Below, piece after piece: positions 11,827 to 25,849 of a stretch of 64,000 bases of DNA. Within the stretch, counting starts at the first letter, position 1, and every line of letters begins with the position of its first letter. This DNA comes from a phage: sequence record PZ445551.1, one strand, 5' to 3'. The notes below the pieces were generated by a model. The model saw only the letters and a program-made list of their open reading frames with translations, made no database searches and had not been told where the DNA came from. A program made the translations under genes and the position numbers.

Positions 11827-12378
11827 ATGCGGATTACTGATAAGTATGTGTTCTTCTTCTCGGCAAAAGATGAATTTAGCAACTGGTATCTATCATCTTT
11901 TATTGAACCTTTAGCTCCCAAGTATAATAATTCTATTACAAGTTCTGTTGAATTTACTTGTGTGGAACAATATATGATGTGGAGAAAAGCATGTTTGTTT
12001 TATGATTACAACATTGCATCTTCTATTTTAACCGGAGATCTAAGATATACAGGAGAAAAAGAACAAGCATATTATAAGCGACTAGGCAGATTAGTTAAAG
12101 ATTATGATGAAGATACCTGGACTTCTTTACGGGAGAAGATTGTCAAACGTGGTTTGTATCTTAAATACACACAAAATGAAGATCTCAAAAATAAACTTAT
12201 AGCCTACGCAGATAAGGAGTTCGTAGAGGCAAGCCCTTATGATTCTATTTATGGTATCAAAATGGGGATGTGGGATCGGGACGTGGAAAATAAGGATTGT
12301 TGGAAAGGACAAAATCTTTTAGGAAAATGGCATACAGACCTTGCTGTTTATCTAAAAGCACAATCTGATATTTCCTGA
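11827..12378 (+). CDS. NADAR (YbiA-like) domain protein
   Basis: DEFSNWYLSSF, FTCVEQYMMWRKA, and C-terminal D..WG....NLLGK match NADAR signature regions. Confidence 0.75.
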   Translation: MRITDKYVFFFSAKDEFSNWYLSSFIEPLAPKYNNSITSSVEFTCVEQYMMWRKACLFYDYNIASSILTGDLRYTGEKEQAYYKRLGRLVKDYDEDTWTSLREKIVKRGLYLKYTQNEDLKNKLIAYADKEFVEASPYDSIYGIKMGMWDRDVENKDCWKGQNLLGKWHTDLAVYLKAQSDIS

Positions 12379-12595
12379 TATTTTGAAAATTTTTATTTTT
12401 ATAAAAAGGGGTGTGGGTTTCATGTACGGAAATTCACCCTCTGCACAGTATATCCAGAGTAAGTAGTATTCTATACCCTGTTAATAAAGTATTTAATTTG
12501 TTTGTTGGACTATGGTATCTGATCTTTAAAAGGCATACTATCTCTTAACTACTACTTATAACAGAACAGTAAAATCATTTTTATAAAAAGTACAA

Positions 12596-12795
12596 AATTA
12601 TTTAAAGTTTTTACAGATTTTTGGGTACAAATTTTGAAAATGAAAAGTTCAAGTTTGGTCAAAATTATTTAAAGTTTTTGTACGTATTTCTATTCAGATT
12701 TTGAAAATGAAAACTTCAATTTTTTAAAAATTCCCCAGTTTATTTAAAGTTTTTTTGCCTTTTTCCGTAGAAAAATCAAAAATGAAAAGTTCAAT
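12596..12795. repeat. three tandem direct repeats of about 65 bp
   Basis: Each unit has TATTTAAAGTTTTT, a variable segment, then TTTTGAAAATGAAAAGTTCAA. Confidence 0.7.
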
Positions 12796-12816
12796 TTCGT
12801 GTTTTTATAGGTGTGT

Positions 12817-12930
12817 TAATGAGAATCATTTTCGTTTGTAAATGAGAATCATTATCATTTAACTATGTAAGTGATAATCATTCTCAGTAAGAGAATGAGA
12901 ATCCTTAGCAAATGAGAATTTTCTCATTTA
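12817..12930. promoter_or_regulatory. cluster of five Fur-box-like palindromic sites
   Basis: AATGAGAATCATTATCATT, GTGATAATCATTCTC, AATGAGAATTTTCTCATT and related; near-matches to GATAATGATAATCATTATC. Confidence 0.45.
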
Positions 12931-13044
12931 GAGAATAACGCGCAGGGGTGGTGTTTGTCTCGCGCTCCCGTGTCCCCTCGCCATACAATAAGAATAGCAT
13001 AACCAACAACAAAAGCAAGCGATTATTTTTATCTTTACATTTCT

Positions 13045-13458
13045 TTACAAATTTATTTTAGACGAGCTACCGGCGATCAACCTTCCAACCAGTGCCCCCT
13101 GGTATGTTAGCCCCGCCTTTACGCCGTGGGGGTGGCGCTTCCTCTTCTGTATGTAAAACAGTATAAGCCCGATCCCTGGGCTTGTCAAGATTATTTTTTG
13201 TTTTCTTGCCAGGATAGGACACCTAACCAAAAATACATGTCGCCCCGCGCCCCCTGGTGGGATCTTGCTTTCCCCGCCGCCACTGCAAGCCCATAGATAA
13301 CCATTTGCGAACGTATCAAAATGATCTATTTCTTCCACCTTATGATCGCCCAGGTTGAGAACGGTTTCAACCTTTAAGCCCGTTGCGCTTGCTACCTGGT
13401 GCACCGTGCCGCCTTGCCAGCCTAATGAGTGCATGAGGTGTGAAGTAGTATTTGTCAT
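13045..13458 (-). CDS. hypothetical protein on opposite strand in GC-rich island (137 aa)
   Basis: Only long ORF in the island; minus-strand TTGCTA-N17-TATTAT promoter-like element upstream; could be a chance ORF. Confidence 0.4.
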   Translation of the reverse strand: MTNTTSHLMHSLGWQGGTVHQVASATGLKVETVLNLGDHKVEEIDHFDTFANGYLWACSGGGESKIPPGGAGRHVFLVRCPILARKQKIILTSPGIGLILFYIQKRKRHPHGVKAGLTYQGALVGRLIAGSSSKINL

Positions 13459-13725
13459 GGTATCGCCCTTTCTTTGATGTGTGCCCTGGTTGGCGCGGTA
13501 GAAAGATAATAGCCCTTTCCTTTATAGATAGCAAGCAAAAAAGAAATGAAAAAAAGATTAAAAAAGGGGTTGACGTTCCTCACCTGGTAGCGTATTATTC
13601 ATCTTGTCGAGGGGGGCGAGGCACAACGACAATAAACAAAAGGAGGGCGCAATGTAGGACGGGCAAAGGTGAGGATCTCCACAATCCACCGTCACAATAA
13701 CATTACTTATAAAAGGTTGATAACG

Positions 13726-13821
13726 ATGATCAAGAAAGAAAACAGCTTGACGGTTGGAACGATTAACGCTATCATTTTCGCCGTTCCATTTTGGGTTGTA
13801 GTAGCGGTTATTATCTTTTAA
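13726..13821 (+). CDS. small hydrophobic peptide (about 31 aa)
   Basis: Not in ORF track; downstream of TTGACG-N17-TATTAT promoter-like element; weak. Confidence 0.25.
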   Translation: MIKKENSLTVGTINAIIFAVPFWVVVAVIIF

Positions 13822-13829
13822 AAATATTC

Positions 13830-13887
13830 TTGACAACGTTTTTTAATCTGATAAGATGTATCACATAGGGCGGCAATAGTGCCGCTC
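13830..13887 (+). promoter_or_regulatory. promoter + 5' stem-loop cassette
   Basis: TTGACA, 16 nt, TAAGAT; hairpin GGGCGGCAATAGTGCCGCTC begins a few nt after -10. Confidence 0.6.
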
Positions 13888-13909
13888 ATAACAGAAGAGA
13901 GAAATAATC

Positions 13910-14182
13910 ATGGCATCATATAGCGCATCAATGATCGTAACGGGCATCACTGGTAAACCTATGCGCGGTGGCGGATCTTTCGCTAACATCAATATTGATG
14001 GGCGTTTATCCCTGGACGCAGCGATCACAGTGGCACGGGAAACGTTTAAAAAAGAATGTAATTTCAATAAACAAGATTATCTCGGTTTCGCTATTGAAAA
14101 AACCGCGCGCTTTGTTGATTATAAAAGCCCGAAAATGGTTGATACTACACTAAAAGCGCAAGATGTAGCATTTTTGCTTTAA
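13910..14182 (+). CDS. hypothetical protein (90 aa)
   Basis: ORF after promoter/stem-loop cassette and SD. Confidence 0.55.
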   Translation: MASYSASMIVTGITGKPMRGGGSFANINIDGRLSLDAAITVARETFKKECNFNKQDYLGFAIEKTARFVDYKSPKMVDTTLKAQDVAFLL

Positions 14183-14185
14183 GGC

Positions 14186-14245
14186 TTGACACTGAAAAAT
14201 AATTTGGTAATATATACTACATAGGGCGGGGAAATGGTTTCCCGC
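14186..14245 (+). promoter_or_regulatory. promoter + 5' stem-loop cassette
   Basis: TTGACA, 16 nt, TAATAT; hairpin GGCGGGGAAATGGTTTCCCGCC. Confidence 0.6.
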
Positions 14246-14268
14246 CAAATCAAAGAAAGGGTAACACA

Positions 14269-14631
14269 ATGAGCAAGCAAATCAATACTATCATGTTAAA
14301 CCTGGTATCTTTCCGCGATGACGTGAAAAATCTTTCGCGTGATGCAGTGGATGCACGGATCGAAAGCTATCGCTCACAGATCGCAACATTACCGCTAAAA
14401 CGTGATCAACATGCCGCTAATATGATGCTTAATGCTATGCTTAAAAAGATGATTCAATGTGATCTTACCCTGGCTTATGAATATGCTGGCGATCTCTTTG
14501 TAACATACAATAAGCCCGTTCCAGGTATGAGCACAACCGAAGAATTGCATGCCTTAAATCTGCGACAAGATGCATGGGATAATATGCGCCGCGTTATGGT
14601 ATGGGTAGAAAGCGGCAAAATTTACGCATAA
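14269..14631 (+). CDS. hypothetical protein (120 aa)
   Basis: ORF after promoter/stem-loop cassette. Confidence 0.55.
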   Translation: MSKQINTIMLNLVSFRDDVKNLSRDAVDARIESYRSQIATLPLKRDQHAANMMLNAMLKKMIQCDLTLAYEYAGDLFVTYNKPVPGMSTTEELHALNLRQDAWDNMRRVMVWVESGKIYA

Positions 14632-14635
14632 AGGC

Positions 14636-14689
14636 TTTACATTACACGAAAACCTGATAAGCTATCTTAAAGCGGGAATAGTTCCCGCT
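14636..14689 (+). promoter_or_regulatory. promoter-like element + 5' stem-loop
   Basis: TTTACA with weak -10; hairpin GCGGGAATAGTTCCCGC. Confidence 0.4.
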
Positions 14690-14707
14690 TTCATAGGATA
14701 AAACTTT

Positions 14708-14854
14708 ATGAAACAATATGTAATGAGTATTCACACCAAAAACGGCGCTACTGTTACGACTCCGGCACGGTTTGCACTTGTAAACCGTTGCAAGAGACTA
14801 AAACGAGAGTTAAAAAATAACCGTGCAACGGGCTTTAAACGCTGGGGAGGATAA
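14708..14854 (+). CDS. small basic protein (about 48 aa)
   Basis: Not in ORF track; ATG after stem-loop; approximate coordinates. Confidence 0.4.
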   Translation: MKQYVMSIHTKNGATVTTPARFALVNRCKRLKRELKNNRATGFKRWGG

Positions 14855-14856
14855 TC

Positions 14857-15117
14857 TTGTTTTTTCTAAAAGTTTTTGATAATGTGATCGCTTTTGAACA
14901 TGCTACAACGTTCGACCTAGCGAGATACGCTATCAGGTTTAAAGATAATGTTTATCCCCGTGCTGGAGGCGGTTACACTATTTTTAATCATCGTAACGCT
15001 CAATTAACGGATATAACTAATCCAGATCCTGGAGTGTATCGCATAGGCTGGCTACCGTCAAAAGACGCGGCAAGCATGTTTAAGGTGTGTAAACTACTAA
15101 CAGAAGAGGCAAATTAG
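14857..15117 (+). CDS. hypothetical protein (86 aa), probable TTG start
   Basis: SD GGGGAGGA 7 nt upstream of TTG; no in-frame ATG near start. Confidence 0.45.
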   Translation: MFFLKVFDNVIAFEHATTFDLARYAIRFKDNVYPRAGGGYTIFNHRNAQLTDITNPDPGVYRIGWLPSKDAASMFKVCKLLTEEAN

Positions 15118-15118
15118 C

Positions 15119-15664
15119 ATGGGGCGTGAGTATGTGATCCAGTCCTGGGTAAAGCATGACGCTAATGATCCGCGCATAATACCAGATGACATGATCGATC
15201 ACATGGTAGGGTATAGCGGGGAGCAGATAGGAAATCGAGCGGCAAAGAGCAACGGCAACACAAAGGCGCGATCCGTTCGCCCTGGTTGGCTGGCAAATGG
15301 TAACGCTGACATTGCAAGCGCCGCAGATCCAAGCGATGACGCTAAAAATAATCCCTTATACAGCATTGATCCGGCTTTTAAGGTGTTAGAAGAGTATCCC
15401 GCTAAATTAGCCGCACTAGATAAGGCATACGAAGAAAAGCGCATGGCATGGACGGTATACAACACCGCTAAAATGGTGCTAGATGCAAAATTGATTAAAG
15501 CCCAGGAGAAGATCAATAAACTTGTTGCAGTAGCGCAAGAGGAAGACCAGGAGGAAGAGGAAGAAATCATGCCTACCCTGGAAGAGGAAGAGATCCAGCC
15601 ATACATGCCGACGGAAGAGGAAAAAAGACAAGCCCTAAAAAATTATGAAAATTGCATTGTGTAA
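15119..15664 (+). CDS. hypothetical protein with highly acidic C-terminus (181 aa)
   Basis: C-terminal QEEDQEEEEEIMPTLEEEEIQPYMPTEEE tract. Confidence 0.55.
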   Translation: MGREYVIQSWVKHDANDPRIIPDDMIDHMVGYSGEQIGNRAAKSNGNTKARSVRPGWLANGNADIASAADPSDDAKNNPLYSIDPAFKVLEEYPAKLAALDKAYEEKRMAWTVYNTAKMVLDAKLIKAQEKINKLVAVAQEEDQEEEEEIMPTLEEEEIQPYMPTEEEKRQALKNYENCIV

Positions 15665-15667
15665 GGC

Positions 15668-15725
15668 TTGACATATGCAAACAAGCCCCGTAATATGTAC
15701 CACATAAAGCGGGGCAACGCCCCAT
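15668..15725 (+). promoter_or_regulatory. promoter + 5' stem-loop cassette
   Basis: TTGACA, 17 nt, TAATAT; hairpin GGGGCAACGCCCC. Confidence 0.55.
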
Positions 15726-15745
15726 AAGGTGAAATAAAAAATCAC

Positions 15746-15773
15746 TTGACACCTGAAATCAGTAAGCTATAAT
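15746..15773 (+). promoter_or_regulatory. second tandem sigma70-like promoter
   Basis: TTGACA, 16 nt, TATAAT directly upstream of small ORF at 15811. Confidence 0.5.
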
Positions 15774-15810
15774 GCTTATATAGATTGAAACATTACTAAG
15801 GAATAAAAGC

Positions 15811-15990
15811 ATGGCTATTATTGCAAAAACTGAGATCGTAGGTTTAGATTCTATCATCCTGGCATATGAGGAAGCTATAGAAATGTATGTAGTGACCTAT
15901 GGTGATTATGTGCGTGAATACGAATACATTGATCTTGCTTTCGAATGTTACATTCGCCAGGTCAATAAAGCCTATGATGATTATCGTTAA
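15811..15990 (+). CDS. small acidic protein (about 59 aa)
   Basis: Not in ORF track; ATG after SD AAGGAATAAAAGC. Confidence 0.4.
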   Translation: MAIIAKTEIVGLDSIILAYEEAIEMYVVTYGDYVREYEYIDLAFECYIRQVNKAYDDYR

Positions 15991-16085
15991 AAGTTTTAGT
16001 CTTGTGCTATTGACAACGAACGATAGTACAAGCATAATAACTTTTATCGGGAATACTCCTAACTAATCAAAAGAGATTAAAGACT

Positions 16086-16451
16086 ATGGCTAAAAATATC
16101 AATGTTTCTGCTTATGCTACCCTGGCTAACACTGCTAAAATTGAACTATCCAGCATTGAAGCGGTACATATTAGCGCCCGTCGCTGGTTTCAAAAGTCTT
16201 ATGGTAATACTTATTTCTCTTTGATGGTTGACGTTGAGATCGGCGGTAAACTGATTGAAGTCGTTAACGTTCCGTTTCACTATGGCTACGGGGATCATTT
16301 TGATACCGTTGCCCTAGAAGAGTTTAGCAAGGTTGTCAACCTGGAAGGTAAAGAGTTTTCAAATTATGCCTACCTTTCCCGTTTTTGCCGTGATAATGGG
16401 ATCGCTGTATACAGTCATGCAAGCGATGTTAAACGTAAAAAAGATTTATAA
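16086..16451 (+). CDS. hypothetical protein (121 aa)
   Basis: ORF with SD AAAGAGATTAAAGACT. Confidence 0.55.
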   Translation: MAKNINVSAYATLANTAKIELSSIEAVHISARRWFQKSYGNTYFSLMVDVEIGGKLIEVVNVPFHYGYGDHFDTVALEEFSKVVNLEGKEFSNYAYLSRFCRDNGIAVYSHASDVKRKKDL

Positions 16452-16457
16452 AAAGCA

Positions 16458-16516
16458 TTGACAGCACGAATAAAAAGCATATAATACTTATATCGAGAGC
16501 GGGAATAGTTCCCGCC
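16458..16516 (+). promoter_or_regulatory. promoter + 5' stem-loop cassette
   Basis: TTGACA, 16 nt, TATAAT; hairpin GCGGGAATAGTTCCCGC. Confidence 0.6.
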
Positions 16517-16540
16517 TCACTGAAAAAAGAGATTAACATC

Positions 16541-16780
16541 ATGGCTAAATCTAAAATGTTCTTAGGTCACAAAAACAAAACTCATTGGAATGTAAGCCTT
16601 TGGATCAACAACGATGAAGGTTTTTATAATCTTGCGCGTGAATTTATCGCAGCTAACACCAATAAGAATGACGCAGCGCGTGATATGATGTTATTTCTTG
16701 AAAGTATGGATCAAGATAAAACGCCAGACGGTTACAAGTTCAGTAAAACTGCGATCCGCGCCGCGATGGTTGGAATGTAA
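16541..16780 (+). CDS. hypothetical protein (79 aa)
   Basis: ORF after promoter/stem-loop cassette. Confidence 0.55.
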   Translation: MAKSKMFLGHKNKTHWNVSLWINNDEGFYNLAREFIAANTNKNDAARDMMLFLESMDQDKTPDGYKFSKTAIRAAMVGM

Positions 16781-16873
16781 AGGAGACATAAAAATGAAAC
16801 ATCGTTCGACCTATCTCACAAAACGTTTTAGCTTAGATCATAAATTGGGCTATTACGGAAGAAATAGAAAATA

Positions 16874-16934
16874 ATTTGACACTGTTTAAAATTCTGGTAT
16901 AGTTTATCACATAGGGCGGGAAATGGTTTCCCGC
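16874..16934 (+). promoter_or_regulatory. promoter + 5' stem-loop cassette
   Basis: TTGACA, 16 nt, TATAGT; hairpin GGCGGGAAATGGTTTCCCGCC. Confidence 0.6.
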
Positions 16935-16957
16935 CAAATGAAAGAAAGGTTATCATT

Positions 16958-17185
16958 ATGGCTATCGTTATTGTTCGCGTATCCGGCACGGTTGGAATCT
17001 CCCAGGTAGTAGCAGTTATCACCGAGAAGAAAGGGGATGATCTTCACTCTTCCTTGAATAGCTGGGCGGTCGCTAACTTCGGGCAATGGTCGAGCGTTGA
17101 GTACATCGAATCCTACCAGGTGCCAACGATTAGCCTAACCGATCTAAATGTTGATCGCTTGTTGTGCCTGGATCAATTAAACTAA
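16958..17185 (+). CDS. hypothetical protein (75 aa)
   Basis: ORF after promoter/stem-loop cassette. Confidence 0.55.
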   Translation: MAIVIVRVSGTVGISQVVAVITEKKGDDLHSSLNSWAVANFGQWSSVEYIESYQVPTISLTDLNVDRLLCLDQLN

Positions 17186-17192
17186 AAATAAT

Positions 17193-17251
17193 ATTGACAA
17201 GATAACTAAAATCAGTAAAATGTAATGCATAGGGCGGCAATAGTGCCGCTC
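17193..17251 (+). promoter_or_regulatory. promoter + 5' stem-loop cassette
   Basis: TTGACA, 16 nt, TAAAAT; hairpin GGGCGGCAATAGTGCCGCTC. Confidence 0.6.
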
Positions 17252-17272
17252 CTAGTGAGAGAGATTATCAAG

Positions 17273-17488
17273 ATGGCTAATATCCGCACACTGTTAAAAA
17301 ATGCAAGTCAAGTTTTATTTTCAGATGACGAGTATTTCAACAAAGACATTACAGGCGTGAAAAATTTAAAAGACGTGAAGGATGTTATCGGTATTCGTGG
17401 ATCTTTACGTAAAGGTGACATATACGGTAACAAGGTGCAATATAAACTGTCAAAAGATTATGATTTTACTTTGACATTTATTTCATAA
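17273..17488 (+). CDS. hypothetical protein (71 aa)
   Basis: Start refined to MANIRTLL downstream of stem-loop. Confidence 0.5.
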   Translation: MANIRTLLKNASQVLFSDDEYFNKDITGVKNLKDVKDVIGIRGSLRKGDIYGNKVQYKLSKDYDFTLTFIS

Positions 17489-17493
17489 AACCG

Positions 17494-17555
17494 CTTGCAA
17501 TACTACAAAAATAAAGTAAACTGTATTCATCAAGGCGGTGGAATAGCCCACCGCC
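17494..17555 (+). promoter_or_regulatory. promoter-like element + 5' stem-loop
   Basis: TTGCAA, 17 nt, TAAACT; hairpin GGCGGTGG..CCACCGCC. Confidence 0.45.
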
Positions 17556-17579
17556 TAACAAAGAGAAGAGGAAAACATC

Positions 17580-17750
17580 ATGATCACTTTTGCTACCCGT
17601 GAAGCCGCTCGCAACGTTGCACGTAAAGTTAACGCCGCCAACCTGGGCGCTACGCTTAAAGCCCCGGTAAAAGATGAATCAGGGAAATGGATCTTCCCTG
17701 GTCTGCGTCACGCTGATAAGCTGGGAACATTAACGTTAAAAAATAAATAA
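17580..17750 (+). CDS. small basic protein (about 56 aa)
   Basis: Not in ORF track; ATG after SD GAGAAGAGGAAAAC. Confidence 0.4.
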   Translation: MITFATREAARNVARKVNAANLGATLKAPVKDESGKWIFPGLRHADKLGTLTLKNK

Positions 17751-17756
17751 TATCCG

Positions 17757-17816
17757 CTTGACAGTAGCATGATTTATAAGTAAAGTAACAACAACGGCGG
17801 GAAATGGTTTCCCGCC
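17757..17816 (+). promoter_or_regulatory. promoter + 5' stem-loop cassette
   Basis: TTGACA with TAAAGT-like -10; hairpin GGCGGGAAATGGTTTCCCGCC. Confidence 0.55.
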
Positions 17817-17836
17817 ATCAATAAAGAGATAAGATT

Positions 17837-18196
17837 ATGAAATCAGTAAAAGCAATTAAAACTTACATTTTGTCGGCTATTTCTTTTGATGGTACTACAA
17901 CCGAAAAAGAAAAAATCACCGAACTGATGCGCCGTTTTAACTCTGAATACTGGTATCCCGATAATCAAAAACGTTACAATTATAACGTGATTAAGGCGAT
18001 AGCCTCATGGTTACAAGGTTTACCGTCAGAAATCAATATTGCTTTTGATTATAACGAGATCGATCACTTGTTAATTGAATGGAAGTACATAAAAGAAACA
18101 AGCAAAGAAACAACCGTTACCCGTGAGCGGGAAAATTATTGGTTATATATTGCAAGCATGATCGTAATCCTGGCAAAACAGCATAACGTGGCGTAA
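17837..18196 (+). CDS. hypothetical protein (119 aa)
   Basis: ORF after promoter/stem-loop cassette. Confidence 0.55.
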   Translation: MKSVKAIKTYILSAISFDGTTTEKEKITELMRRFNSEYWYPDNQKRYNYNVIKAIASWLQGLPSEINIAFDYNEIDHLLIEWKYIKETSKETTVTRERENYWLYIASMIVILAKQHNVA

Positions 18197-18211
18197 TTAA
18201 GAGGAAGAAAC

Positions 18212-18349
18212 ATGAACGCATCACAGCAGATCGAAAAATTCAACCGCAGCAAGGCGCGTAAAGATTGGAACGAAGAGATCACCAAAAAAGGCGACAAGCG
18301 GAACAAAACAAAGAGAGATCGCAGCACAAAAAGATACTGGAACGAATAA
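18212..18349 (+). CDS. small Lys/Arg-rich protein (about 45 aa)
   Basis: Not in ORF track; SD AAGAGGAAGAAAC; followed by terminator. Confidence 0.4.
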   Translation: MNASQQIEKFNRSKARKDWNEEITKKGDKRNKTKRDRSTKRYWNE

Positions 18350-18353
18350 CAAA

Positions 18354-18378
18354 AAGGGCGCAATAAGCGCCCTTTTAG
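18354..18378 (+). terminator. rho-independent terminator
   Basis: Hairpin GGGCGCAATAAGCGCCC followed by TTTTAGC. Confidence 0.6.
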
Positions 18379-18466
18379 CTTATATAGAGGCTTGTTACCC
18401 ATAGGCAATGGTAACGCCAGGATAAGCCTATAAACCACGTTAGACAGCTTTACAGGAGCTTTAAAA

Positions 18467-18649
18467 ATGAAATTAGACGAAATAAGCAAGGCACTAGCCC
18501 AGGGGCAAAGGTTATGCGCCCGATATCGTGATCAATATGGCTTCATAACTAGCGGCGTGATCCTGGGGATTGAAGGCAATAAGATTTTTATTGACACGTT
18601 GAAAAACGTTGTATATAGTGACAATATAATCTCAATAAAACATATATGA
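18467..18649 (+). CDS. hypothetical protein (60 aa)
   Basis: ORF with upstream SD ACAGGAGC. Confidence 0.5.
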   Translation: MKLDEISKALAQGQRLCARYRDQYGFITSGVILGIEGNKIFIDTLKNVVYSDNIISIKHI

Positions 18650-18657
18650 GGCAAGAA

Positions 18658-19059
18658 ATGAAAAAATTATTGATCGCTGGTTTAATCTCTTTTGGCATGG
18701 TTGGAACATCTAGCGCGGCGATATCCTCCACAGTAGCAGAATTAAGCGCCGTTGATGCAATGGAAAACGTCATGCTTATTAATAACGCGATCCCCGATGA
18801 AATCATGGAGGATTCACACATGATCGCTTATGGTGCTGTTACACAACTAACGGCAAAAATAGATAAATCTATTGTTAACGGCTTAAATGAAGATGTGCCA
18901 TGTGAAATTATTACCAGTGTGCTGACTACTCAAAATTTTACGCCGTGGTTAAAAAGTATTCAAAAAGTACACAGTACAGCCGCAGATCGTAGCAATGAAA
19001 AACTAGTGTCAGCACTTGCAACGTATACCCTAGCAAAATGCACCGAGATAAAAGATTGA
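18658..19059 (+). CDS. putative secreted protein (signal peptide MKKLLIAGLISFGMVGTSSAA)
   Basis: Start refined to MKKLL with SD GAGG; N-terminal signal-like hydrophobic segment ending in SSA-A. Confidence 0.55.
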   Translation: MKKLLIAGLISFGMVGTSSAAISSTVAELSAVDAMENVMLINNAIPDEIMEDSHMIAYGAVTQLTAKIDKSIVNGLNEDVPCEIITSVLTTQNFTPWLKSIQKVHSTAADRSNEKLVSALATYTLAKCTEIKD

Positions 19060-19106
19060 CAACATAGAAAGCACGTTATAAGATACACACAACAAAGGAG
19101 AACTAC

Positions 19107-19409
19107 ATGAACGGCATAGCTAAAACGTTTTTTCTTTTTTCTGGTGTAAATGATCCATCAATAAAAGTCGATAGTGTAAAAGAAAACAATACTATCACCG
19201 CTAAATTGTTTCAAGATGAAACAAATAACGTGCTAATCATTAATCTTAAAGAAGTAACTAAAGGTTATTATACTATTGCTTACCATGCGATTTATCATGC
19301 TGGTACTAGTGAGGAAGTGCAAACAAGCAACAACGAAAGCGCGGCGCTACCTGGTGATCTGGTGCTGGGCGTTATCAGTTTAATTGTCAATGATTTTTTT
19401 AAGGAGTAA
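19107..19409 (+). CDS. hypothetical protein (100 aa)
   Basis: ORF after TTGACA/TATAAG promoter-like element and SD AAAGGAGAA. Confidence 0.55.
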   Translation: MNGIAKTFFLFSGVNDPSIKVDSVKENNTITAKLFQDETNNVLIINLKEVTKGYYTIAYHAIYHAGTSEEVQTSNNESAALPGDLVLGVISLIVNDFFKE

Positions 19410-19413
19410 AACC

Positions 19414-19509
19414 ATGCCCTATTTACATTTATTTTTCGGTATCTTATTGACAGGATCTTTTTTCTTCTGTATGCTTGTTTCTATTGTAAACCACGTTTTA
19501 AGACATTAA
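19414..19509 (+). CDS. small hydrophobic peptide (about 31 aa)
   Basis: Not in ORF track; SD AAGGAG upstream; weak. Confidence 0.3.
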   Translation: MPYLHLFFGILLTGSFFFCMLVSIVNHVLRH

Positions 19510-19518
19510 GGAAACAGC

Positions 19519-19638
19519 ATGAAAATTATTCCCGTACAATATAGCGTAATAAATCCAGCATACGAGGAAGGAAGGAAAACAAGCATGGCTTTATGTTGTA
19601 TTGCTACTATAGCCATGTTGTTATATATTGTGTTTTAA
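19519..19638 (+). CDS. small hydrophobic peptide (about 39 aa)
   Basis: Not in ORF track; SD AAGGAAACAGC; weak. Confidence 0.3.
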   Translation: MKIIPVQYSVINPAYEEGRKTSMALCCIATIAMLLYIVF

Positions 19639-19738
19639 TAGGTTTTATAGTTGTACGCTTTAAGGGCTTGACAATTTTTTGTTATGCTTTAAACTATATC
19701 TTGAAAACGGCAAAGGCCGCAAACAAAAGGGTAAAATT

Positions 19739-20062
19739 ATGAAATCTGTGATCGGTGTTTATTTGGATAACTCTGATTTTTTCTATCATCGCGCTCGTTT
19801 CCTTGATGCGATTGAAATGATAGAATCAGGCTTTAAAGAGTATCGCCTTGCACATGATGACCTGGAAGCATTACAGGGCAATAGTGTTTTTACATTGCAA
19901 GCTAAAGCACTATGCAAAAGCCGGATCGACATTGCGAGCAAAAAGATAGAACGCGGCATGTCCTGGTTGCGCACCGCAGAAATCAACATGGGGCAATGGT
20001 ACGGCGAAAACTTAGAAAATAAACATACTTTTGTCAATGTAGAAAATATTGAAGATTATTGA
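19739..20062 (+). CDS. hypothetical protein (107 aa)
   Basis: Start refined to MKSVIGVY downstream of TTGACA promoter-like element. Confidence 0.5.
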   Translation: MKSVIGVYLDNSDFFYHRARFLDAIEMIESGFKEYRLAHDDLEALQGNSVFTLQAKALCKSRIDIASKKIERGMSWLRTAEINMGQWYGENLENKHTFVNVENIEDY

Positions 20063-20124
20063 TTGACAGCACACCTAACGGGTAGTATATTGTATCTCAT
20101 AGAGCGGGGAAATGGTTTCCCCGC
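20063..20124 (+). promoter_or_regulatory. promoter + 5' stem-loop cassette
   Basis: TTGACA with TAGTAT-like -10; hairpin GCGGGGAAATGGTTTCCCCGC. Confidence 0.55.
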
Positions 20125-20144
20125 CTTAAAAGAAGAGATAAGCT

Positions 20145-20429
20145 ATGAAGATCACAAAAGCACTTTCCAACTATGCAGCACGTCGCGGATTATGTTTAAC
20201 CGTTGAAAATTTAGGGAAAGAAGATTTTTTGTGCTTTTGGGAGCTTGAGAATGATAATGAGTGGATCTTCTCTTATTCTATCTGCGAAGATCAAAACGGT
20301 TGTTTATTAACCTGGCGCGGTAATATCTATTTACCGGAAGAAATCAAAGAAGAATTACCAGGCACGATCATGACTGAGAAACAGCTTAAGGAAGTGATCA
20401 ATTTTGTAGGGCAAAACATTAAAAAATAA
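20145..20429 (+). CDS. hypothetical protein (94 aa)
   Basis: ORF after promoter/stem-loop cassette. Confidence 0.55.
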   Translation: MKITKALSNYAARRGLCLTVENLGKEDFLCFWELENDNEWIFSYSICEDQNGCLLTWRGNIYLPEEIKEELPGTIMTEKQLKEVINFVGQNIKK

Positions 20430-20430
20430 T

Positions 20431-20488
20431 TTGACACTAGGCAAACAACGTAGTAAAGTTTATCACATAGGGCGGCAATAGTGCCGCT
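20431..20488 (+). promoter_or_regulatory. promoter + 5' stem-loop cassette
   Basis: TTGACA with TAAAGT-like -10; hairpin GGGCGGCAATAGTGCCGCTC. Confidence 0.55.
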
Positions 20489-20510
20489 CATAACAGAAGA
20501 GAAACAAATC

Positions 20511-20681
20511 ATGATCCCGACTATGTTTTATGTATCGCGCAAAGGTCACAATATTTTTTGGTCTGAAGATTTAAATGAAGCTATGACGTTTGCCCGTGAT
20601 CGTGTCGCTATCGGTGGCGTTAACATCACTGTAACCGATGAAAACGGCATTGAATACTATAACGGCGACGATGAAGAGTAA
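20511..20681 (+). CDS. hypothetical protein (56 aa)
   Basis: Start refined to MIPTMFYV downstream of stem-loop. Confidence 0.5.
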   Translation: MIPTMFYVSRKGHNIFWSEDLNEAMTFARDRVAIGGVNITVTDENGIEYYNGDDEE

Positions 20682-20725
20682 TCAACAAGGCGGGATTAAT
20701 CCCGCCTGTATTAAAGGGTAATATA

Positions 20726-20863
20726 ATGAAAACTTTCAACGCAACAGCCTCGACAATTGGTTATATTATTACAGTGCAAGCCGTTGACCTGGTAGCGGCA
20801 GCAAACAAGATTAAAAAGATGATCCCAACAGGCAGCGAATTTTCCGTTTGGGAAGTAAAATAA
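20726..20863 (+). CDS. small protein (about 45 aa)
   Basis: Not in ORF track; preceded by palindrome GGCGGGATTAATCCCGCC and SD-like AAGGGTAA. Confidence 0.4.
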   Translation: MKTFNATASTIGYIITVQAVDLVAAANKIKKMIPTGSEFSVWEVK

Positions 20864-20865
20864 AT

Positions 20866-20924
20866 CTTGACAATAGTTTATTACTTGATAGAATGTATTT
20901 CGTAGGGCGGCAATAGTGCCGCTC
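20866..20924 (+). promoter_or_regulatory. promoter + 5' stem-loop cassette
   Basis: TTGACA, 16 nt, TAGAAT; hairpin GGGCGGCAATAGTGCCGCTC. Confidence 0.6.
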
Positions 20925-20945
20925 ACAACTAAAAGAGAAATCATC

Positions 20946-21140
20946 ATGGCGCTTAAAAAATTAACAAGCAATACTCGTTGGGATGAAATCGACGGGGAAG
21001 TATACATTTTCGCCCGTAAACCAGGTGATCAAAAATGGTCAAAGGCTTTTACTTGCCACCCTGCAACAATAGATCTAATAAAAAGTAAAGGTTTACGTGA
21101 AGCAGTAGCGAGAAGTTTACTGATCCCTTATAAAAAATAG
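20946..21140 (+). CDS. hypothetical protein (64 aa)
   Basis: Start refined to MALKKLTS downstream of stem-loop. Confidence 0.5.
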   Translation: MALKKLTSNTRWDEIDGEVYIFARKPGDQKWSKAFTCHPATIDLIKSKGLREAVARSLLIPYKK

Positions 21141-21141
21141 T

Positions 21142-21203
21142 TTGACAATATGCTGTTATCTGGTAAAGTGTACGACATAGGGCGGGGCAATAAGGCAACG
21201 CCC
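21142..21203 (+). promoter_or_regulatory. promoter + variant 5' stem-loop
   Basis: TTGACA with TAAAGT-like -10; GC-rich imperfect hairpin GGGCGGGGCAATAAGGCAACGCCC. Confidence 0.45.
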
Positions 21204-21221
21204 ATTAATGAGGGTAGAATC

Positions 21222-21326
21222 ATGTTAGAGAAAATTTTCACGGTTGTAGTAGTTGGCCTGGCGTTATCGGTTGGATTGGTTGCAACTATGGCTAACATGA
21301 TCCTATCTTCCCACGGTATTGGATAA
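21222..21326 (+). CDS. small hydrophobic peptide (about 34 aa)
   Basis: Not in ORF track; single predicted TM helix. Confidence 0.35.
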   Translation: MLEKIFTVVVVGLALSVGLVATMANMILSSHGIG

Positions 21327-21336
21327 GGTGAATCAA

Positions 21337-21552
21337 ATGATCACGAATAAGACAGGTAAAACAGAATTTTTACGCGGCTTGCAAATAGGTAAACCTGAGA
21401 TCTGGCATTGCACTAAATCCGCGCATAATGAAATGAAAGATTTTACCGCTACTTTACAACGTGTTAAAATATCTATCACGCAGAAAAAAGCCTTGTTAGT
21501 AGTAGAAAACGAGATACCGCAAACCATTATTATTGTCGAGCGTACAGCATGA
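21337..21552 (+). CDS. hypothetical protein (71 aa)
   Basis: Start refined to MITNKTGK. Confidence 0.5.
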   Translation: MITNKTGKTEFLRGLQIGKPEIWHCTKSAHNEMKDFTATLQRVKISITQKKALLVVENEIPQTIIIVERTA

Positions 21553-21935
21553 AAACTGAAATCATTATTGAAATCATCAACGGTTATAAAGAAGCCTTTA
21601 TTTTTGCTGAATCAGCCAGGGATCATGAAGGCTATTTTATTGATAACTTAGACGATTATGATTTTTCAGATCAAGCCCATCAGCGGATCATTCATGACGT
21701 AGCGGCTTATTGTGATGCCAATGATGCTGCTATCTCTGAGGCAATGAGCGACGGCGCTACAGCAAACCAGATCGGGAATGATTTACATTTTACCCGTAAC
21801 GGTCACGGCGTAGGCTTTTGGGATCGCCCTGAAATATACACTACTAACACCGCCAACCGCCTAACAAATGCAGCTAAATTAATGCCATCGGTGCATGCTT
21901 ACATTGGTGAAGATAATTTGATTTATATTGAATAA
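21549..21935 (+). CDS. hypothetical protein (128 aa)
   Basis: ATGA overlap with upstream gene. Confidence 0.55.
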   Translation: MKTEIIIEIINGYKEAFIFAESARDHEGYFIDNLDDYDFSDQAHQRIIHDVAAYCDANDAAISEAMSDGATANQIGNDLHFTRNGHGVGFWDRPEIYTTNTANRLTNAAKLMPSVHAYIGEDNLIYIE

Positions 21936-21941
21936 AAAGTA

Positions 21942-22000
21942 TTGACACCGATCCCCCATATGGTATTATTTACCACGTAGGCGGGAAATGGTTTCCCGCC
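21942..22000 (+). promoter_or_regulatory. promoter + 5' stem-loop cassette
   Basis: TTGACA with TATTAT-like -10; hairpin GGCGGGAAATGGTTTCCCGCC. Confidence 0.55.
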
Positions 22001-22023
22001 AGGTAATCAAAAAGGTAAATACT

Positions 22024-22413
22024 ATGCGCAACCTGGTTTCTGTTTCTAACGTTGAAAAATTTCAATCCTTGCAGGGTATCGTTAACAACGTAGCGCCTTT
22101 TTTAGTCAATGGCTTGATTGCAAAGATGAAAAATAAACATCATGCGGCATGGTCTGCTTACTGCTTTGATAATGATGAAAAAGCGGCTGAAATGATGTTA
22201 GATATGCTGTTAAATAGTGTAGAAACATCTTTACCGGAAAACATCGCAGAAGAGATCACCTATCGTTATAATATGGCGATCACTTACCAGGAGGTTGCGC
22301 AATTTAATATGATGGATGATGACGAACAACAGGATCAGGAAATGTTTTGGGAGTATGCAGATCGTCAATCGGCTTTTGATGAAAAGTTAGCGATGTATTA
22401 TAACGAATATTAA
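22024..22413 (+). CDS. hypothetical protein (129 aa)
   Basis: Start refined to MRNLVSVS downstream of stem-loop. Confidence 0.55.
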   Translation: MRNLVSVSNVEKFQSLQGIVNNVAPFLVNGLIAKMKNKHHAAWSAYCFDNDEKAAEMMLDMLLNSVETSLPENIAEEITYRYNMAITYQEVAQFNMMDDDEQQDQEMFWEYADRQSAFDEKLAMYYNEY

Positions 22414-22426
22414 TACACGGTAAAAG

Positions 22427-22455
22427 AAAGGGGCGCACTAAGCGCCCTTTTTTGT
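22427..22455 (+). terminator. rho-independent terminator
   Basis: Hairpin AGGGGCGCACTAAGCGCCCT followed by TTTTTTG. Confidence 0.65.
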
Positions 22456-22799
22456 ATTCTTTTTTCACGATGGAAGTAACACGTAAAGAATAAACGTAAA
22501 AGGTGGTGTAAAACAGCCTAAAACCGATTATAACCGCTTAAACAAGGTAGTAATGACTAATCACCTTGCCAGGATGAAAAAGCTGTTATAAAGCTATTTA
22601 GAGCGTTTAAAGCACATAGGAAATAATTTGCTTTTTATCTTGCCTTTTATCCTGCTTTTGATTATTATTATGGAACGGGCGGCACCTGGGGACAGGGGAA
22701 GGTAATCACCGGAAGATCCCGCTATATATTGATAGCTAATATCTATTAAACAACAAAACATCAAAGGAATAAACTATCAAATCTTTACAATTCTACCTA

Positions 22800-22859
22800 T
22801 TGACACAGGATCACCCTTATAATAAGATGTATCCAGTAGGGCGGGAAATGGTTTCCCGC
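22800..22859 (+). promoter_or_regulatory. promoter + 5' stem-loop cassette
   Basis: TTGACA, 17 nt, TAAGAT; hairpin GGGCGGGAAATGGTTTCCCGC. Confidence 0.6.
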
Positions 22860-22878
22860 TTGATATAGGAATCATACC

Positions 22879-23112
22879 ATGATCGAACAAATTAAAAGCA
22901 CTACACCAAATGTTAACGGCAATGTTTCACACTTTATCGGGGATAATGAAAGGGGTACACCATACGCCGCCGTAACCGTGCAACCTAATGGCGATTATTG
23001 GTTTACCGTGTACGGATCATATTCTTTCGGACGCCCGGCACATGATAAGATCTTGCAAGCGGTTAAGCCTACTGGGAAGAATATCACAGCAGAAAAATTT
23101 TATAAAAAATAG
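22879..23112 (+). CDS. hypothetical protein (77 aa)
   Basis: ORF after promoter/stem-loop cassette. Confidence 0.55.
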   Translation: MIEQIKSTTPNVNGNVSHFIGDNERGTPYAAVTVQPNGDYWFTVYGSYSFGRPAHDKILQAVKPTGKNITAEKFYKK

Positions 23113-23113
23113 C

Positions 23114-23142
23114 TTGCTTTATAGTCTCTGTTAATTTATAGT
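23114..23142 (+). promoter_or_regulatory. sigma70-like promoter without stem-loop
   Basis: TTGCTT, 17 nt, TATAGT. Confidence 0.45.
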
Positions 23143-23187
23143 TATCGTGTAGGGCAAACAATTTTAAACGGTAAACGAGGAATCACC

Positions 23188-23571
23188 ATGAGCAATATCA
23201 GCAACCTGGCGGCTACTGTAAACGGTAAAGATTTTAACGGCGCTGTAGATCGTGATCCTATGTGGTGCTTATCAGTGTTTAAAGGCGATCTGGTTGAAGT
23301 TAGAACAACCGAAGGGTATAGCGATGATTATAAATGCGAGATCCATTTACACAACTGGTACACGGGTAAAACTTATGCGCTGAATCATGCGTTTATCGGC
23401 AAGGTTGAATATAGAGAAATGATCGACGAAGAAACGGGGCAAGATTTTAGCGAGCATGTTTATATTCGTTCCGAGACATTAGCCGAACGTTTGATCGAGA
23501 AAATGAAAGCAAAAAATAAAATTAATTTATCTCATTGGATTGATATAACAAACGATCCAGCTTATCAGTAA
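23188..23571 (+). CDS. hypothetical protein (127 aa)
   Basis: ORF with SD AACGAGGAATCACC. Confidence 0.55.
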   Translation: MSNISNLAATVNGKDFNGAVDRDPMWCLSVFKGDLVEVRTTEGYSDDYKCEIHLHNWYTGKTYALNHAFIGKVEYREMIDEETGQDFSEHVYIRSETLAERLIEKMKAKNKINLSHWIDITNDPAYQ

Positions 23572-23585
23572 ATAACATTTCATAC

Positions 23586-23615
23586 CAGGGCGCACAAAGC
23601 GCCCTTTCTTTTTAC
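23586..23615 (+). terminator. rho-independent terminator
   Basis: Hairpin GGGCGCACAAAGCGCCC followed by TTTCTTTTT. Confidence 0.6.
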
Positions 23616-23817
23616 CTAAATAAAGATGATAGCTTTTACCTATCAAAAACGTTCACCGAAAAAAGTGAATAGATCGCGGTATCGAGCTAATCAAGGAGCA
23701 GATGAACAACCATACCATGAAGATCATAAGGCGCTTACAACGTGTTTTAGACCGCTTATTTTTAATTTCTCAATGTAACTATCTGGCAAAAACAGCCTTT
23801 TTCTTGTCTTTCCTCTT

Positions 23818-23895
23818 AAATGATAATCATTCTTATTTATAGCTGATTATTTATGCAATAAACTGAATAATGCAATAATGATAATCATTCTTAAC
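23818..23895. promoter_or_regulatory. two Fur-box-like sites
   Basis: AAATGATAATCATTCTTA and AATAATGATAATCATTCTTAAC. Confidence 0.45.
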
Positions 23896-24260
23896 TTATG
23901 ACCATCTAACCTATAAAATAATAAGTTATCTAACTAAATTAAAACTAATTATCTCACCTTTATTTATAACTTACTGTTACTATCTCATTGATAACCTTAT
24001 ATTAAACAACAATAACCAATATAAATCATTACTAAGCTAAATATAATCTATCTAACCTTTAAAACTATAACTATAATCTATCGAATTGTTGCACAAAGTA
24101 ACTATTAAATTGTTAGTAACATTACTAAATAATTAATATCCTATCTATTTATGATCTAATCTTTATCTTCCTATCTATTACCTAAATAATCATTTCATAC
24201 AGTAATCATTTCATACAATAATTATAACAAGAAATATAATTCGCAAGCGTATCATTAGCA

Positions 24261-24430
24261 GCCTATGCCGGACACATAGGCGGCTAATAATAACGCAACT
24301 ACACACCCCACATAATAACCATCACCGATAGTTATTATTTGTGCTTATGTAGCTTGCAACAATTGCAAGCGCAACAATATACATGGTATATTGTATCCCT
24401 TACATTGTTGCGGTGCGTTATTATTAGCTA
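24261..24430. repeat. nested palindromes flanked by perfect 15-bp inverted repeat
   Basis: GCTAATAATAACGCA ... TGCGTTATTATTAGC enclosing GCTTGCAACAATTGCAAGC and CAATATACATGGTATATTG; also GCCTATG..CATAGGC. Confidence 0.6.
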
Positions 24431-24757
24431 ATGTTTAGAACATTGGCTATAATATAAGCTAAGTAATAAGCTATGCAATAATAAACATGGTGAATAATGA
24501 CATTGATGATCATAATGCGCCACCTTCCAGGGGGCGCTATGTGAACACAAAGAAATCTTTCTTGTCAAGAAAAAATATTGCCATTATTGCGCAAAATTAT
24601 TTATATCTGAATAGATGATTTTTCATACTATTGCCCCATATAACATACCTCATTTGTTGAGCATAGTTATAGCCTATTTGTTGAGCCTACTTTCTTAAAA
24701 GCGCAATAAATCAGAATTATCTTGATTTTTAGTCTGTTTTATAGTATAGAAAGTATG

Positions 24758-24778
24758 CAAATGATAATCATTATCAGC
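24758..24778. promoter_or_regulatory. Fur-box-like site (best match)
   Basis: CAAATGATAATCATTATCAGC, about 17 of 19 matches to GATAATGATAATCATTATC. Confidence 0.45.
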
Positions 24779-24940
24779 TATCTTCCACGGGTAGCACTAT
24801 TTCACGCCAGATCATTTCATTTGGCAAGGTGTATATAGATGTTTAGACTTGCCAAGCCATTGATTTACTTAGAATTTATCTGTTTTGTTGTGAGTAGAGC
24901 CTTTCTTGCTCAGAAAATAATCAAAAGTCTTATAAGTCAT

Positions 24941-24977
24941 TGAATGATAATGCAAATGATAATTATTCTCATTGATA
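24941..24977. promoter_or_regulatory. Fur-box-like palindromic site
   Basis: TGAATGATAATGCAAATGATAATTATTCTCATTGATA. Confidence 0.4.
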
Positions 24978-25090
24978 TTTGAGGGGGACGGTCGGCAGAA
25001 ATCGGGGGGCGCTGAAAATCGCGTTAAGCACCTCTCGCAAGCGAGCAGTATTTTGCGGCAAGTTATTGATATTATTGGCTTTACGCTTAT

Positions 25091-25195
25091 GAAAAGGGGG
25101 TGTGTCGAAATAAATCGGGTATACCGGAAAATTTTTGTGGCATAGATATTTATTTGTCTATATTATGTACAAAAGGGTGTGTTAAAAATATTAGG
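25091..25195 (+). promoter_or_regulatory. two tandem copies of AAAAGGG(G)TGTGT-AAATA-GGTATA motif (candidate phage-specific promoter)
   Basis: GAAAAGGGGGTGTGTCGAAATAAATCGGGTATACC and CAAAAGGGTGTGTTAAAAATATTAGGTATATA, about 80 bp apart, upstream of cluster starting 25333. Confidence 0.35.
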
Positions 25196-25332
25196 TATAT
25201 ATAGAATAATTGATAGGGAAATCCTATACTAATTCCTCCATTAATGATGTTTCTATGTTACTGTTCTTGTAACAGATGAAAAGACGCTGTATGATGTGTG
25301 GCATGAAACGTAAATTTATAAAGGAGTCTGAT

Positions 25333-25692
25333 ATGTGTGTTCCTCTTAGCAGTCCACTGCTGTTAGAATTTTACAAAGCATGGATGGAAGATCATTCCTC
25401 AATGCATCGTGAGAATGTTGGTTTGTGTAATTGCCTTATGGATTACCTGGCAACCACTATGTCAAAGAAAAAACCTACGGAAGAAGATATAGAATATTTC
25501 AAGATGGTTCGTAGCAAAACGCTGGAAGAGATGAAACTGCAATTCACGTGTGCTGGGCTATCCTCCTTTCTACCCTTTAATTATGATCTTCTGTGTTATG
25601 AAGATGAAGGTAAGACACATTCTTGCCATACCAACCCAAAGAGATTGCAGTGGGTGAAAGATCGTATTGCCGATTCATGCAAGGGTGTGTAG
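25333..25692 (+). CDS. paralogous family A protein (Cys/His-rich), copy 1
   Basis: Shares L.FY..W, GLC.CL.D, F.CAGL...PFN and CH.N..R.QWV.DRI with ORFs at 25839, 28130, 29408; start refined with SD AAAGGAG. Confidence 0.6.
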   Translation: MCVPLSSPLLLEFYKAWMEDHSSMHRENVGLCNCLMDYLATTMSKKKPTEEDIEYFKMVRSKTLEEMKLQFTCAGLSSFLPFNYDLLCYEDEGKTHSCHTNPKRLQWVKDRIADSCKGV

Positions 25693-25693
25693 A

Positions 25694-25849
25694 ATGTTGG
25701 AATTGATTGGGATAGTTTGGTTAATGATAAAAGCAGGTTTCGTCGGTTTCGGACTTCTTATAATTTTGTGTATGTTCCTTAGTGCAATACAGGCATTCTT
25801 TTATCTGCTAGGTAGAATACTTAAGTTGGGAGGTGATAATGAAAAGTAA
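25694..25849 (+). CDS. small membrane protein (51 aa)
   Basis: Two hydrophobic helices; start refined to MLELIGIV. Confidence 0.45.
   Translation: MLELIGIVWLMIKAGFVGFGLLIILCMFLSAIQAFFYLLGRILKLGGDNEK

Follow-up and report, generated by a model that had tools for sequence, protein, structure and literature searches.

A conserved promoter-like repeat pair beside the terminal repeat of a phi92-like Escherichia phage

The window analysed here, a stretch of 64,000 nucleotides of phage DNA (sequence record PZ445551.1), carries three copies of a GT-rich motif, AAAAGGG(G)TGTGT, which are designated sites 1, 2 and 3. Sites 2 and 3 form a conserved cis-element that lies beside the terminal repeat and directly upstream of the gene cluster starting at 25333; their position just before this cluster had been noted in a preliminary description of this DNA. 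Judged from sequence comparison, the two sites would constitute the promoter/operator region of the left-end operon, a reading to which we assign roughly an even chance. Site 1 is best read as the 3'-end stem-loop of the operon upstream of it and as unrelated to the other two sites. We count the element among the phage early control regions in a broad sense, as one not characterised before, and do not consider it a new kind of system.

The preliminary description had suggested that all three sites could be promoters or regulator-binding sites of one temporal class. A promoter or regulator-binding site is indeed what the sequence of sites 2 and 3 suggests best, whereas a temporal class defined by a motif at three sites can be set aside as a false lead. 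The phi92-like and phAPEC8-like phages are candidates for therapy with a broad host range.

Sequence origin and relatives

Window positions 23500-25700 are 100% identical to Escherichia phage VivaForever (PP925843.1, 146,096 bp). The window matches the minus strand (reverse complement) of that record, window position x corresponding to record position 112201 - x. VivaForever is a phi92-like member of the genus Justusliebigvirus in the subfamily Stephanstirmvirinae, to which its close relatives (94-98% identity) belong as well. Genome-wide motif counts were obtained from both strands of the full 146,096-bp VivaForever genome. For the comparison of the conserved block at site 3, an alignment of 15 sequences from GenBank, IMG/VR and metagenomes was used, representing Justusliebigvirus and two clades of Phapecoctavirus, for which the labels A and B were coined in this analysis. 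Pattern scans of IMG/VR and of metagenomes returned close relatives only. In more distant relatives (the noncoding region of rV5; Klebsiella phage phi1_175008), a counterpart of the element was not recognisable.

Position and repeat structure of sites 2 and 3

In this genome, the terminal repeat can now be placed. The phi92 record annotates DTR-L at positions 1-343 and phi92 positions 1-562 align to window 24684-25243 with 97.9% identity, which places the direct terminal repeat at window 24684-25026. From the end of the left terminal repeat it is 66 bp rightwards to site 2 and 145 bp to site 3, both of which precede the first gene. This gene starts with ATG at 25333 and opens a run of small plus-strand genes of unknown function that extends to approximately 37.9 kb. 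The region between 23572 and 25332 (1.76 kb) is noncoding in curated relatives, and sites 2 and 3 occupy its 3' end, 160-240 bp before the first gene. The three motif copies had been described as standing at the heads of noncoding regions, which is correct for site 1 (25 bp past a stop codon) but not for the other two. A comparable noncoding stretch of 2.6 kb is found inside a cluster of small open reading frames in phage rV5 (PMC3606486).

When aligned with each other, sites 2 and 3 are identical at 28 of 42 positions, and none of 2000 shuffles matched the score. The GT-rich core assumed to be common to all three sites reflects a real repeat in the case of sites 2 and 3, whereas site 1 has only an 11-mer in common with them. 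The AAATA...GGTATA arrangement reported downstream of sites 2 and 3 was confirmed. The site cores read GTGTCGAAATAAAT and GTGTTAAAAATAAT in Justusliebigvirus and GTGTCGAAATAATC and GTGTCAAAAATAATC in Phapecoctavirus clade A, and the site 2 core GGGTGTGTCGAAATAAT was found in the latter clade as well (e.g. in ZCKP1 and ECML-183-2). The two sites are spaced by 77 bp in Justusliebigvirus and by 56-57 bp in Phapecoctavirus, so that the genera differ by roughly 20 bp, or approximately two helical turns.

The string GG.GTGT is invariant in the 15 sequences from all three clades, while the TG repeat to the left of the conserved block varies by one unit. Among close relatives, the G-run comprises three to five residues at site 3 and up to six at site 2. 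The leading AAAA of the motif, as originally given, did not turn out to be conserved: at site 3, relatives mostly have AAAGGGG, and the G-run ranges from 3 to 6.

Occurrence of the motif in the genome

The three strings exist as reported, with site 2 starting at 25092, one base to the left of the 25093 given before. On both strands of the whole genome, the pattern AAAG{3,5}TGTG has exactly three matches, which are the three sites, all on the plus strand of the window. The mean expected from first-order Markov simulations of the genome is 0.37, and none of the 300 simulations reached three matches. The core GGGTGTG alone occurs ten times compared to about seven copies in a back-of-envelope estimate from base composition. 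An enrichment across the genome is hence seen for the longer pattern, but not for the core. Since the pattern was defined after the sequence had been read, its odds are optimistic and the statistics alone are not decisive. Our argument rests on comparative evidence rather than on motif statistics.

A fourth look-alike, AGGTGTGTTAATGAG at 12806, was considered as a further copy and rejected, as it is not conserved outside Justusliebigvirus.

The conserved block at site 3

The GT box of site 3 leads into a block of 39 bp (Table 1), in which the 15-sequence alignment contains zero insertions or deletions and most positions are invariant. Length differences directly abut the block, on the left as a variable G-run and on the right as the 12-bp sequence CCTATACTAAT, which is duplicated in some phages. 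Comparison of the two genera gives it 83-84% conservation, more than any other part of the terminal noncoding region. It is conserved in front of differing first genes; phi92, for example, departs from the window after about 25243.

A 55-nt query around the block matched each record at one place, with a query coverage of 80% or more in 125 records. In records that start at the physical end, the block is found 200-540 bp from it. No further copy of the block was detected in the 146-kb genome when mismatches at up to 6 of 24 positions were allowed, and mismatch-tolerant searches yielded no further copy of the segment from GT to GGTATA or of the cores GTGTYRAAATA and TGTYRAAATAA. The element is present at a single locus of the genome, and once per record in every relative, which speaks against the suggested temporal class.

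Two minor observations are added here. Four records named 'Campylobacter phage' with the host C. jejuni (MG065639, MG065645, MG065656 and MG065689) are 96% identical to this E. coli phage over the region with which its close relatives were identified; these labels are probably due to mislabelling or contamination. The unit CCTATACTAAT(C/T), at 25219-25235 of the window, is tandemly duplicated in some Justusliebigvirus (relatives L003, L013 and L027).

The layout of the block resembles that of a promoter. It contains two overlapping hexamers of the sigma70 -10 type, namely TAGAAT, which scores 5.5 bits, and AATAAT, in which ATAAT is invariant throughout the 15 sequences; the matrix totals with these two hexamers are 6.4 and 5.7 bits. 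In Phapecoctavirus, TAGAAT reads TGGGAT or TGGAAT and the variants place TGn before the second hexamer, the TG-extended -10 then being TGGGATAAT or TGGAATAAT. The A/G changes in TATAT[AG]G[AG]ATAAT, taken together with the invariant ATAAT, fit two -10 readings, one of which is TG-extended. Conservation ends at ATAGG, the position at which transcription from either of the two hexamers would start. ATAGGG also follows the -10 in six of the sigma70 cassettes described below, and the sequence resembles the cACATAGGGCG behind the -10 of several of them. At site 3, GTGTYA and the -10 are equally far apart in every clade. The block has the orientation of the gene at 25333, with 116 nt between its end and the ATG.

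A scan with a sigma70 position weight matrix revealed approximately 24 canonical promoters (TTGACA-N16/17-TAnnnT) with 12-14 bits on the plus strand between about 13570 and 22830. They stand before small genes, and in many of them the predicted start carries a conserved cACATAGGGCG(G). The scan found no canonical sigma70 promoter heading the 25333 cluster. The matrix score of site 3 is low because GTGTTA occupies the -35 position. As site 3 scores low and no cassette heads the 25333 cluster, the preliminary description was right in distinguishing sites 2 and 3 from the sigma70 cassettes that crowd the region of 13.5-22.8 kb. For rV5, sigma70-type promoters and a late motif, TggTAaAAtA, are the only ones reported (PMC3606486).

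The stem-loop at site 1

Site 1 had been counted as a member of the promoter class. It is instead the 5' arm of a hairpin between two convergent genes, located at 11827-12378 (plus strand) and 13045-13458 (minus strand). The 14-bp stem-loop begins 29 nt past the stop codon of the former gene, which is NADAR/YbiA-like. Its folding energy was calculated to be -16.4 kcal/mol (z = -3.5), and none of 200 shuffled sequences was equally stable. In phage muut, a one-sided U-to-C exchange turns a G-U pair into G-C, which yields -19.2 kcal/mol. At the same place, Phapecoctavirus phages have a different hairpin and a T-run; clade A has AAAGGTGTCAC as counterpart of the site 1 motif, and clade B has none. 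An AAATA...GGTATA arrangement was not found downstream of site 1.

Site 1 resembles intrinsic terminators and 3' stabilising stem-loops in having a GC-rich 14-bp hairpin that closes an operon directly behind a stop codon. Unlike in intrinsic terminators, the hairpin of the window is followed by GCACAGUAUAUCC and not by a U-tract, and a terminator scan gave no plus-strand site there. Lacking the U-tract, it is not a canonical intrinsic terminator.

Proposed function and alternatives

We propose that sites 2 and 3 jointly control, in cis, the transcription unit that comes first inside the left end of the virion DNA. Site 3 would form the upstream edge of a compact promoter, with GTGTYA in the place of the -35 followed by TAGAAT and RATAAT, and transcription would start at about 25213-25218 and run rightward into the small-gene cluster from 25333. 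Site 2, 77-79 bp upstream, would repeat the half on the -35 side, GGGTGT(GT)Y[GA]AAATAAT. Given the non-canonical -35 and the occurrence of the same box of about 18 bp at both sites within a clade, this box is probably read by a protein. Sigma region 4 binding weakly could fulfil this role, but a dedicated activator or repressor is the likelier reader, and the box would set the strength or timing of this single promoter. A more specific version, which we consider distinctly unlikely, is that the box, found twice and only in the repeat-proximal region, may be the site of a phage-carried, early phage-made or host factor that replaces -35 recognition at a 'first-entry' promoter.

Several points weigh against a promoter at this position. 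A -35 hexamer close to TTGACA at 16-18 bp upstream of the -10 is missing, the best candidates GTGTTA and TTAAAA scoring 0.4 and 1.8 bits, and the matrix totals at site 3 amount to 5.7-7.4 bits compared to 12-14 bits for the cassettes. The exact -10 hexamer is ambiguous, the candidates at a comparable distance from site 2 are poor (GAAAAT or GATATT), and in Phapecoctavirus clade B the GT core of site 2 is degenerate. None of the ten proteins encoded first in the operon gave an informative Pfam or PHROG match, and no candidate DNA-binding protein emerged from them, MotA and AsiA having been sought only among these ten. A literature search turned up neither transcriptome nor start-site studies of Stephanstirmvirinae. 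Finally, a single-locus element beside a packaging cut also resembles a recognition site for terminase.

According to this latter explanation, sites 2 and 3 would be a packaging or terminus-recognition signal, in which repeated sites for the small terminase subunit or an end protein position the nearby cut. The element indeed has a single locus in each genome, which is a requirement for a packaging signal, its two direct repeats lie beside the right boundary of the terminal repeat, and it is kept whatever gene follows. Single occurrence and nearness to the cut suit this explanation as well as they suit a promoter. The shift in spacing between the genera would moreover preserve the relative helical phase of the two sites. 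The arrangement is closest to cosB of lambda, in which the R sites bound by gpNu1 next to cosN likewise form a unique locus of short repeats, about 50-170 bp from the cut and before the first gene of the left arm. However, lambda has cohesive ends instead of a direct terminal repeat of 343 bp, shows no sequence similarity, and the block described here includes -10-like hexamers. These invariant -10-like positions and the end of conservation at the would-be transcript start favour a promoter. Other repeats are nearer to the cuts, such as a 24-bp tandem repeat over the left boundary (24645-24692), and conserved blocks cover both boundaries (24668-24784 and 24932-25030). Taken together, we regard a packaging signal as rather unlikely. 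A role as replication origin or as another DNA-level element, e.g. as a set of sites for an initiator or a nucleoid protein, appears quite improbable. The surrounding 1.76 kb are full of repeats, inverted repeats and Fur-box-like palindromes and are syntenic between the genera, but the repeat-rich part is separated from the pair by the terminal repeat. With two copies, the pair does not reach the multiplicity of iterons, and it is directed towards the first gene, directly before which it stands.

A genome-wide class of middle or late promoters for a modified host RNA polymerase, with site 1 as a member, is highly improbable. In its favour, the motif is rare by statistics, none of the three copies is coding, all of them lie on the same strand, and the box is where T4-type middle promoters have a substitute for the -35. 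A temporal class would need many promoters, yet the full element occurs at one locus, with no other in 146 kb even when 5-6 mismatches are allowed. The sequence downstream of site 1 differs, the hairpin explains this site, there is no gene for it to drive, and it is lost in clade B. The middle promoters of T4, which depend on AsiA and MotA, are nevertheless the closest match to the promoter proposed here in terms of architecture, as they combine a sigma70-type -10 with a conserved box (the MotA box) replacing TTGACA. Differences are that T4 has dozens of middle promoters compared to one locus here, and that the box is unrelated to the MotA box TGCTT. In terms of role, the closest system would be the promoters A1, A2 and A3 of T7, which are arranged in tandem a few hundred bp inside the left repeat, point inward and head the first-expressed genes. 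Reading by the host RNA polymerase is presumed here, as at the T7 left-end promoters. The T7 promoters are strong canonical sigma70 promoters, whereas GTGTYA behind a G-run replaces the -35 in the phage studied here and the matrix score is low. Extended -10 promoters of E. coli (TGnTATAAT) can work without a good -35, and the block of Phapecoctavirus contains such a TGn-extended -10. In Justusliebigvirus, including the window, TG is replaced by TA, and the neighbouring TAGAAT would have to serve as -10.

Further candidates were rejected. An upstream -10, TATTAT (25161-25166), with the GT box as the start was dismissed because its hexamers are not conserved and the final T is missing in Phapecoctavirus clade A. 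RNA structure at sites 2 and 3 is not significant (z = -1.6 and +0.1). Host sites for CRP, IHF, ArcA, FNR, sigma54, sigma28, sigmaE and IscR and the marbox were compared by eye with consensus sequences, and none fits. A host origin of the DNA was not supported by blastn against 5,426 E. coli genomes, which gave no match for 12380-13060 and short weak matches only for the terminal region. Searches against Rfam returned no match at the gathering thresholds or at E <= 5, and no tRNAs were found.

The first left-end operon lacks the canonical promoters used elsewhere in the genome and is preceded by a unique element conserved in two genera. If a factor of the kind considered above replaced -35 recognition there, which is distinctly unlikely, phi92-like and phAPEC8-like phages would have a left-end operon that is switched separately from the approximately 24 sigma70 promoters of the opposite genome end, which are constitutive, and the switch might be coupled to DNA entry or packaging. 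In any case, positions 25090-25220 represent a concrete target of 130 bp for studies of control and for engineering.

Table 1 Features of the window discussed in this study
Feature	Position	Strand	Remark
Site 1 string AAAAAGGGGTGTGGG	12403-12417	+	
Site 1 stem-loop, 14 bp; 5' arm GGGGTGTGGG, 3' arm CACCCTCT	12407-12442	+	
Site 2 string AAAAGGGGGTGTGTCG	25092-25107	+	
Site 2, upstream repeat copy AAAAGGGGGTGTGTCGAAATAAATCGGGTATACC	25092-25125	+	66 bp right of the left terminal repeat end
Site 3 string AAAAGGGTGTGTTAAAA	25171-25187	+	
Site 3 GT box AAAAGGGTGTGTTA	25171-25184	+	variable G-run, then TGTGTYA
Conserved 39-bp block GTGT[TC]AAAAATA[AT][TC][AC]GGTATATAT[AG]G[AG]ATAATTGATAGG	25179-25217	+	proposed core promoter, about -36 to +3
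Overlapping candidate -10 hexamers TAGAAT (25202-25207) and AATAAT/GATAAT (25205-25210)	25202-25210	+	
ATAGGG	25213-25218	+	predicted transcription start region; end of conservation
First gene of the left-end operon, 119 amino acids	25333-25692	+	unknown function
Counterpart of the 343-bp direct terminal repeat	24684-25026		one collapsed copy in the circularised assembly
Fur-box arrays	12815-12930; 23816-23895; 24757-24775; 24946-24976		

Other features of the noncoding regions

Both large noncoding regions contain arrays of sequences close to the Fur box consensus. Matches to GATAATGATAATCATTATC at 15 or more of 19 positions number 14 compared to 1.2 expected, and five match at 16 or more of 19 positions compared to 0.13 expected. 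Examples are GCAAATGATAATCATTATC (17/19) and GTAAATGAGAATCATTATC (16/19), and the strongest boxes are all located within 12815-12909 or 23874-24775. Sites of this type recur in the corresponding regions of Phapecoctavirus, and a palindrome with 14/19 matches, AATGAGAATCATTCTCATT, is present at the same position in phage SSE121 (Seunavirus), a member of Vequintavirinae. No description of Fur-box arrays in such phages was found in the literature searched; the sole mention of a 'Fur box' in a coliphage that was found refers to the sit operon of lambdoid prophages (PMC6969025). A 37-bp unit occurs in three copies, at 24497-24533, 24755-24791 and 24950-24986, two of them inside the terminal repeat. 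Two copies join the Fur box ATGCAAATGATAAT with a -10-like hexamer, TATCTT or GATATT, and a G-run, which is the layout of a Fur-repressed promoter.

Beside the first Fur array, a noncoding element of approximately 230 nt is located on the minus strand (about 12920-13160), downstream of a promoter-like site, TTGACA-N17-TATACT (13188-13160, minus strand). It is largely invariant in an alignment of nine phages from Stephanstirmvirinae and Vequintavirinae, including SSE121, EspYZU08, GE_vB_MG, pEa_SNUABM_55 and KP13-16. The element has no Rfam match, and almost no covariation was seen with RNAalifold. The deposited record calls a coding sequence (CDS) at 13045-13434 over part of it, whereas curated relatives do not. 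Fur-box arrays conserved in a virulent phage, together with this element, may matter more than the motif pair.

Between the site 1 hairpin and the Fur array, three direct repeats of about 70 bp (TTATTTAAAGTTTTT...TTTTGAAAATGAAAAGTTCAA) span 12577-12797. They have counterparts in Phapecoctavirus, and a different triple repeat is found in SSE121. The repeats are iteron-like and, by analogy, may mark a replication origin. The 24-bp tandem repeat mentioned above (ATACCTCATTTGTTGAGCATAGTT / ATAGCCTATTTGTTGAGCCTACTT) extends across position 24684, the left boundary inferred for the terminal repeat, and is a candidate for part of the terminase cutting site. Nested inverted repeats occur at 24219-24428, including perfect arms of 15 nt, GCTAATAATAACGCA and TGCGTTATTATTAGC, that are 116 nt apart, and the stretch from about 24220 to 24374 is approximately 75% conserved with Phapecoctavirus.

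In the VivaForever record, both noncoding regions are filled with 'hypothetical proteins' of 30-46 amino acids (CDS0158-0165 and 0204-0206, at window 23700-25205 and 12411-13000). These small CDSs are probably over-predictions, since the one at 25100-25204 is frame-shifted in close relatives and the others are not called in curated genomes. This open reading frame of 34 amino acids (25100-25204) was rejected as a gene, being frame-shifted in phi92 and in an IMG/VR relative and absent from curated relatives. A ribosome-binding site with a GTG start, as implied by the CDSs at 25100-25204 and 12411-12548, was rejected as well, given that AAGGGG directly abuts the GTG with no spacing.

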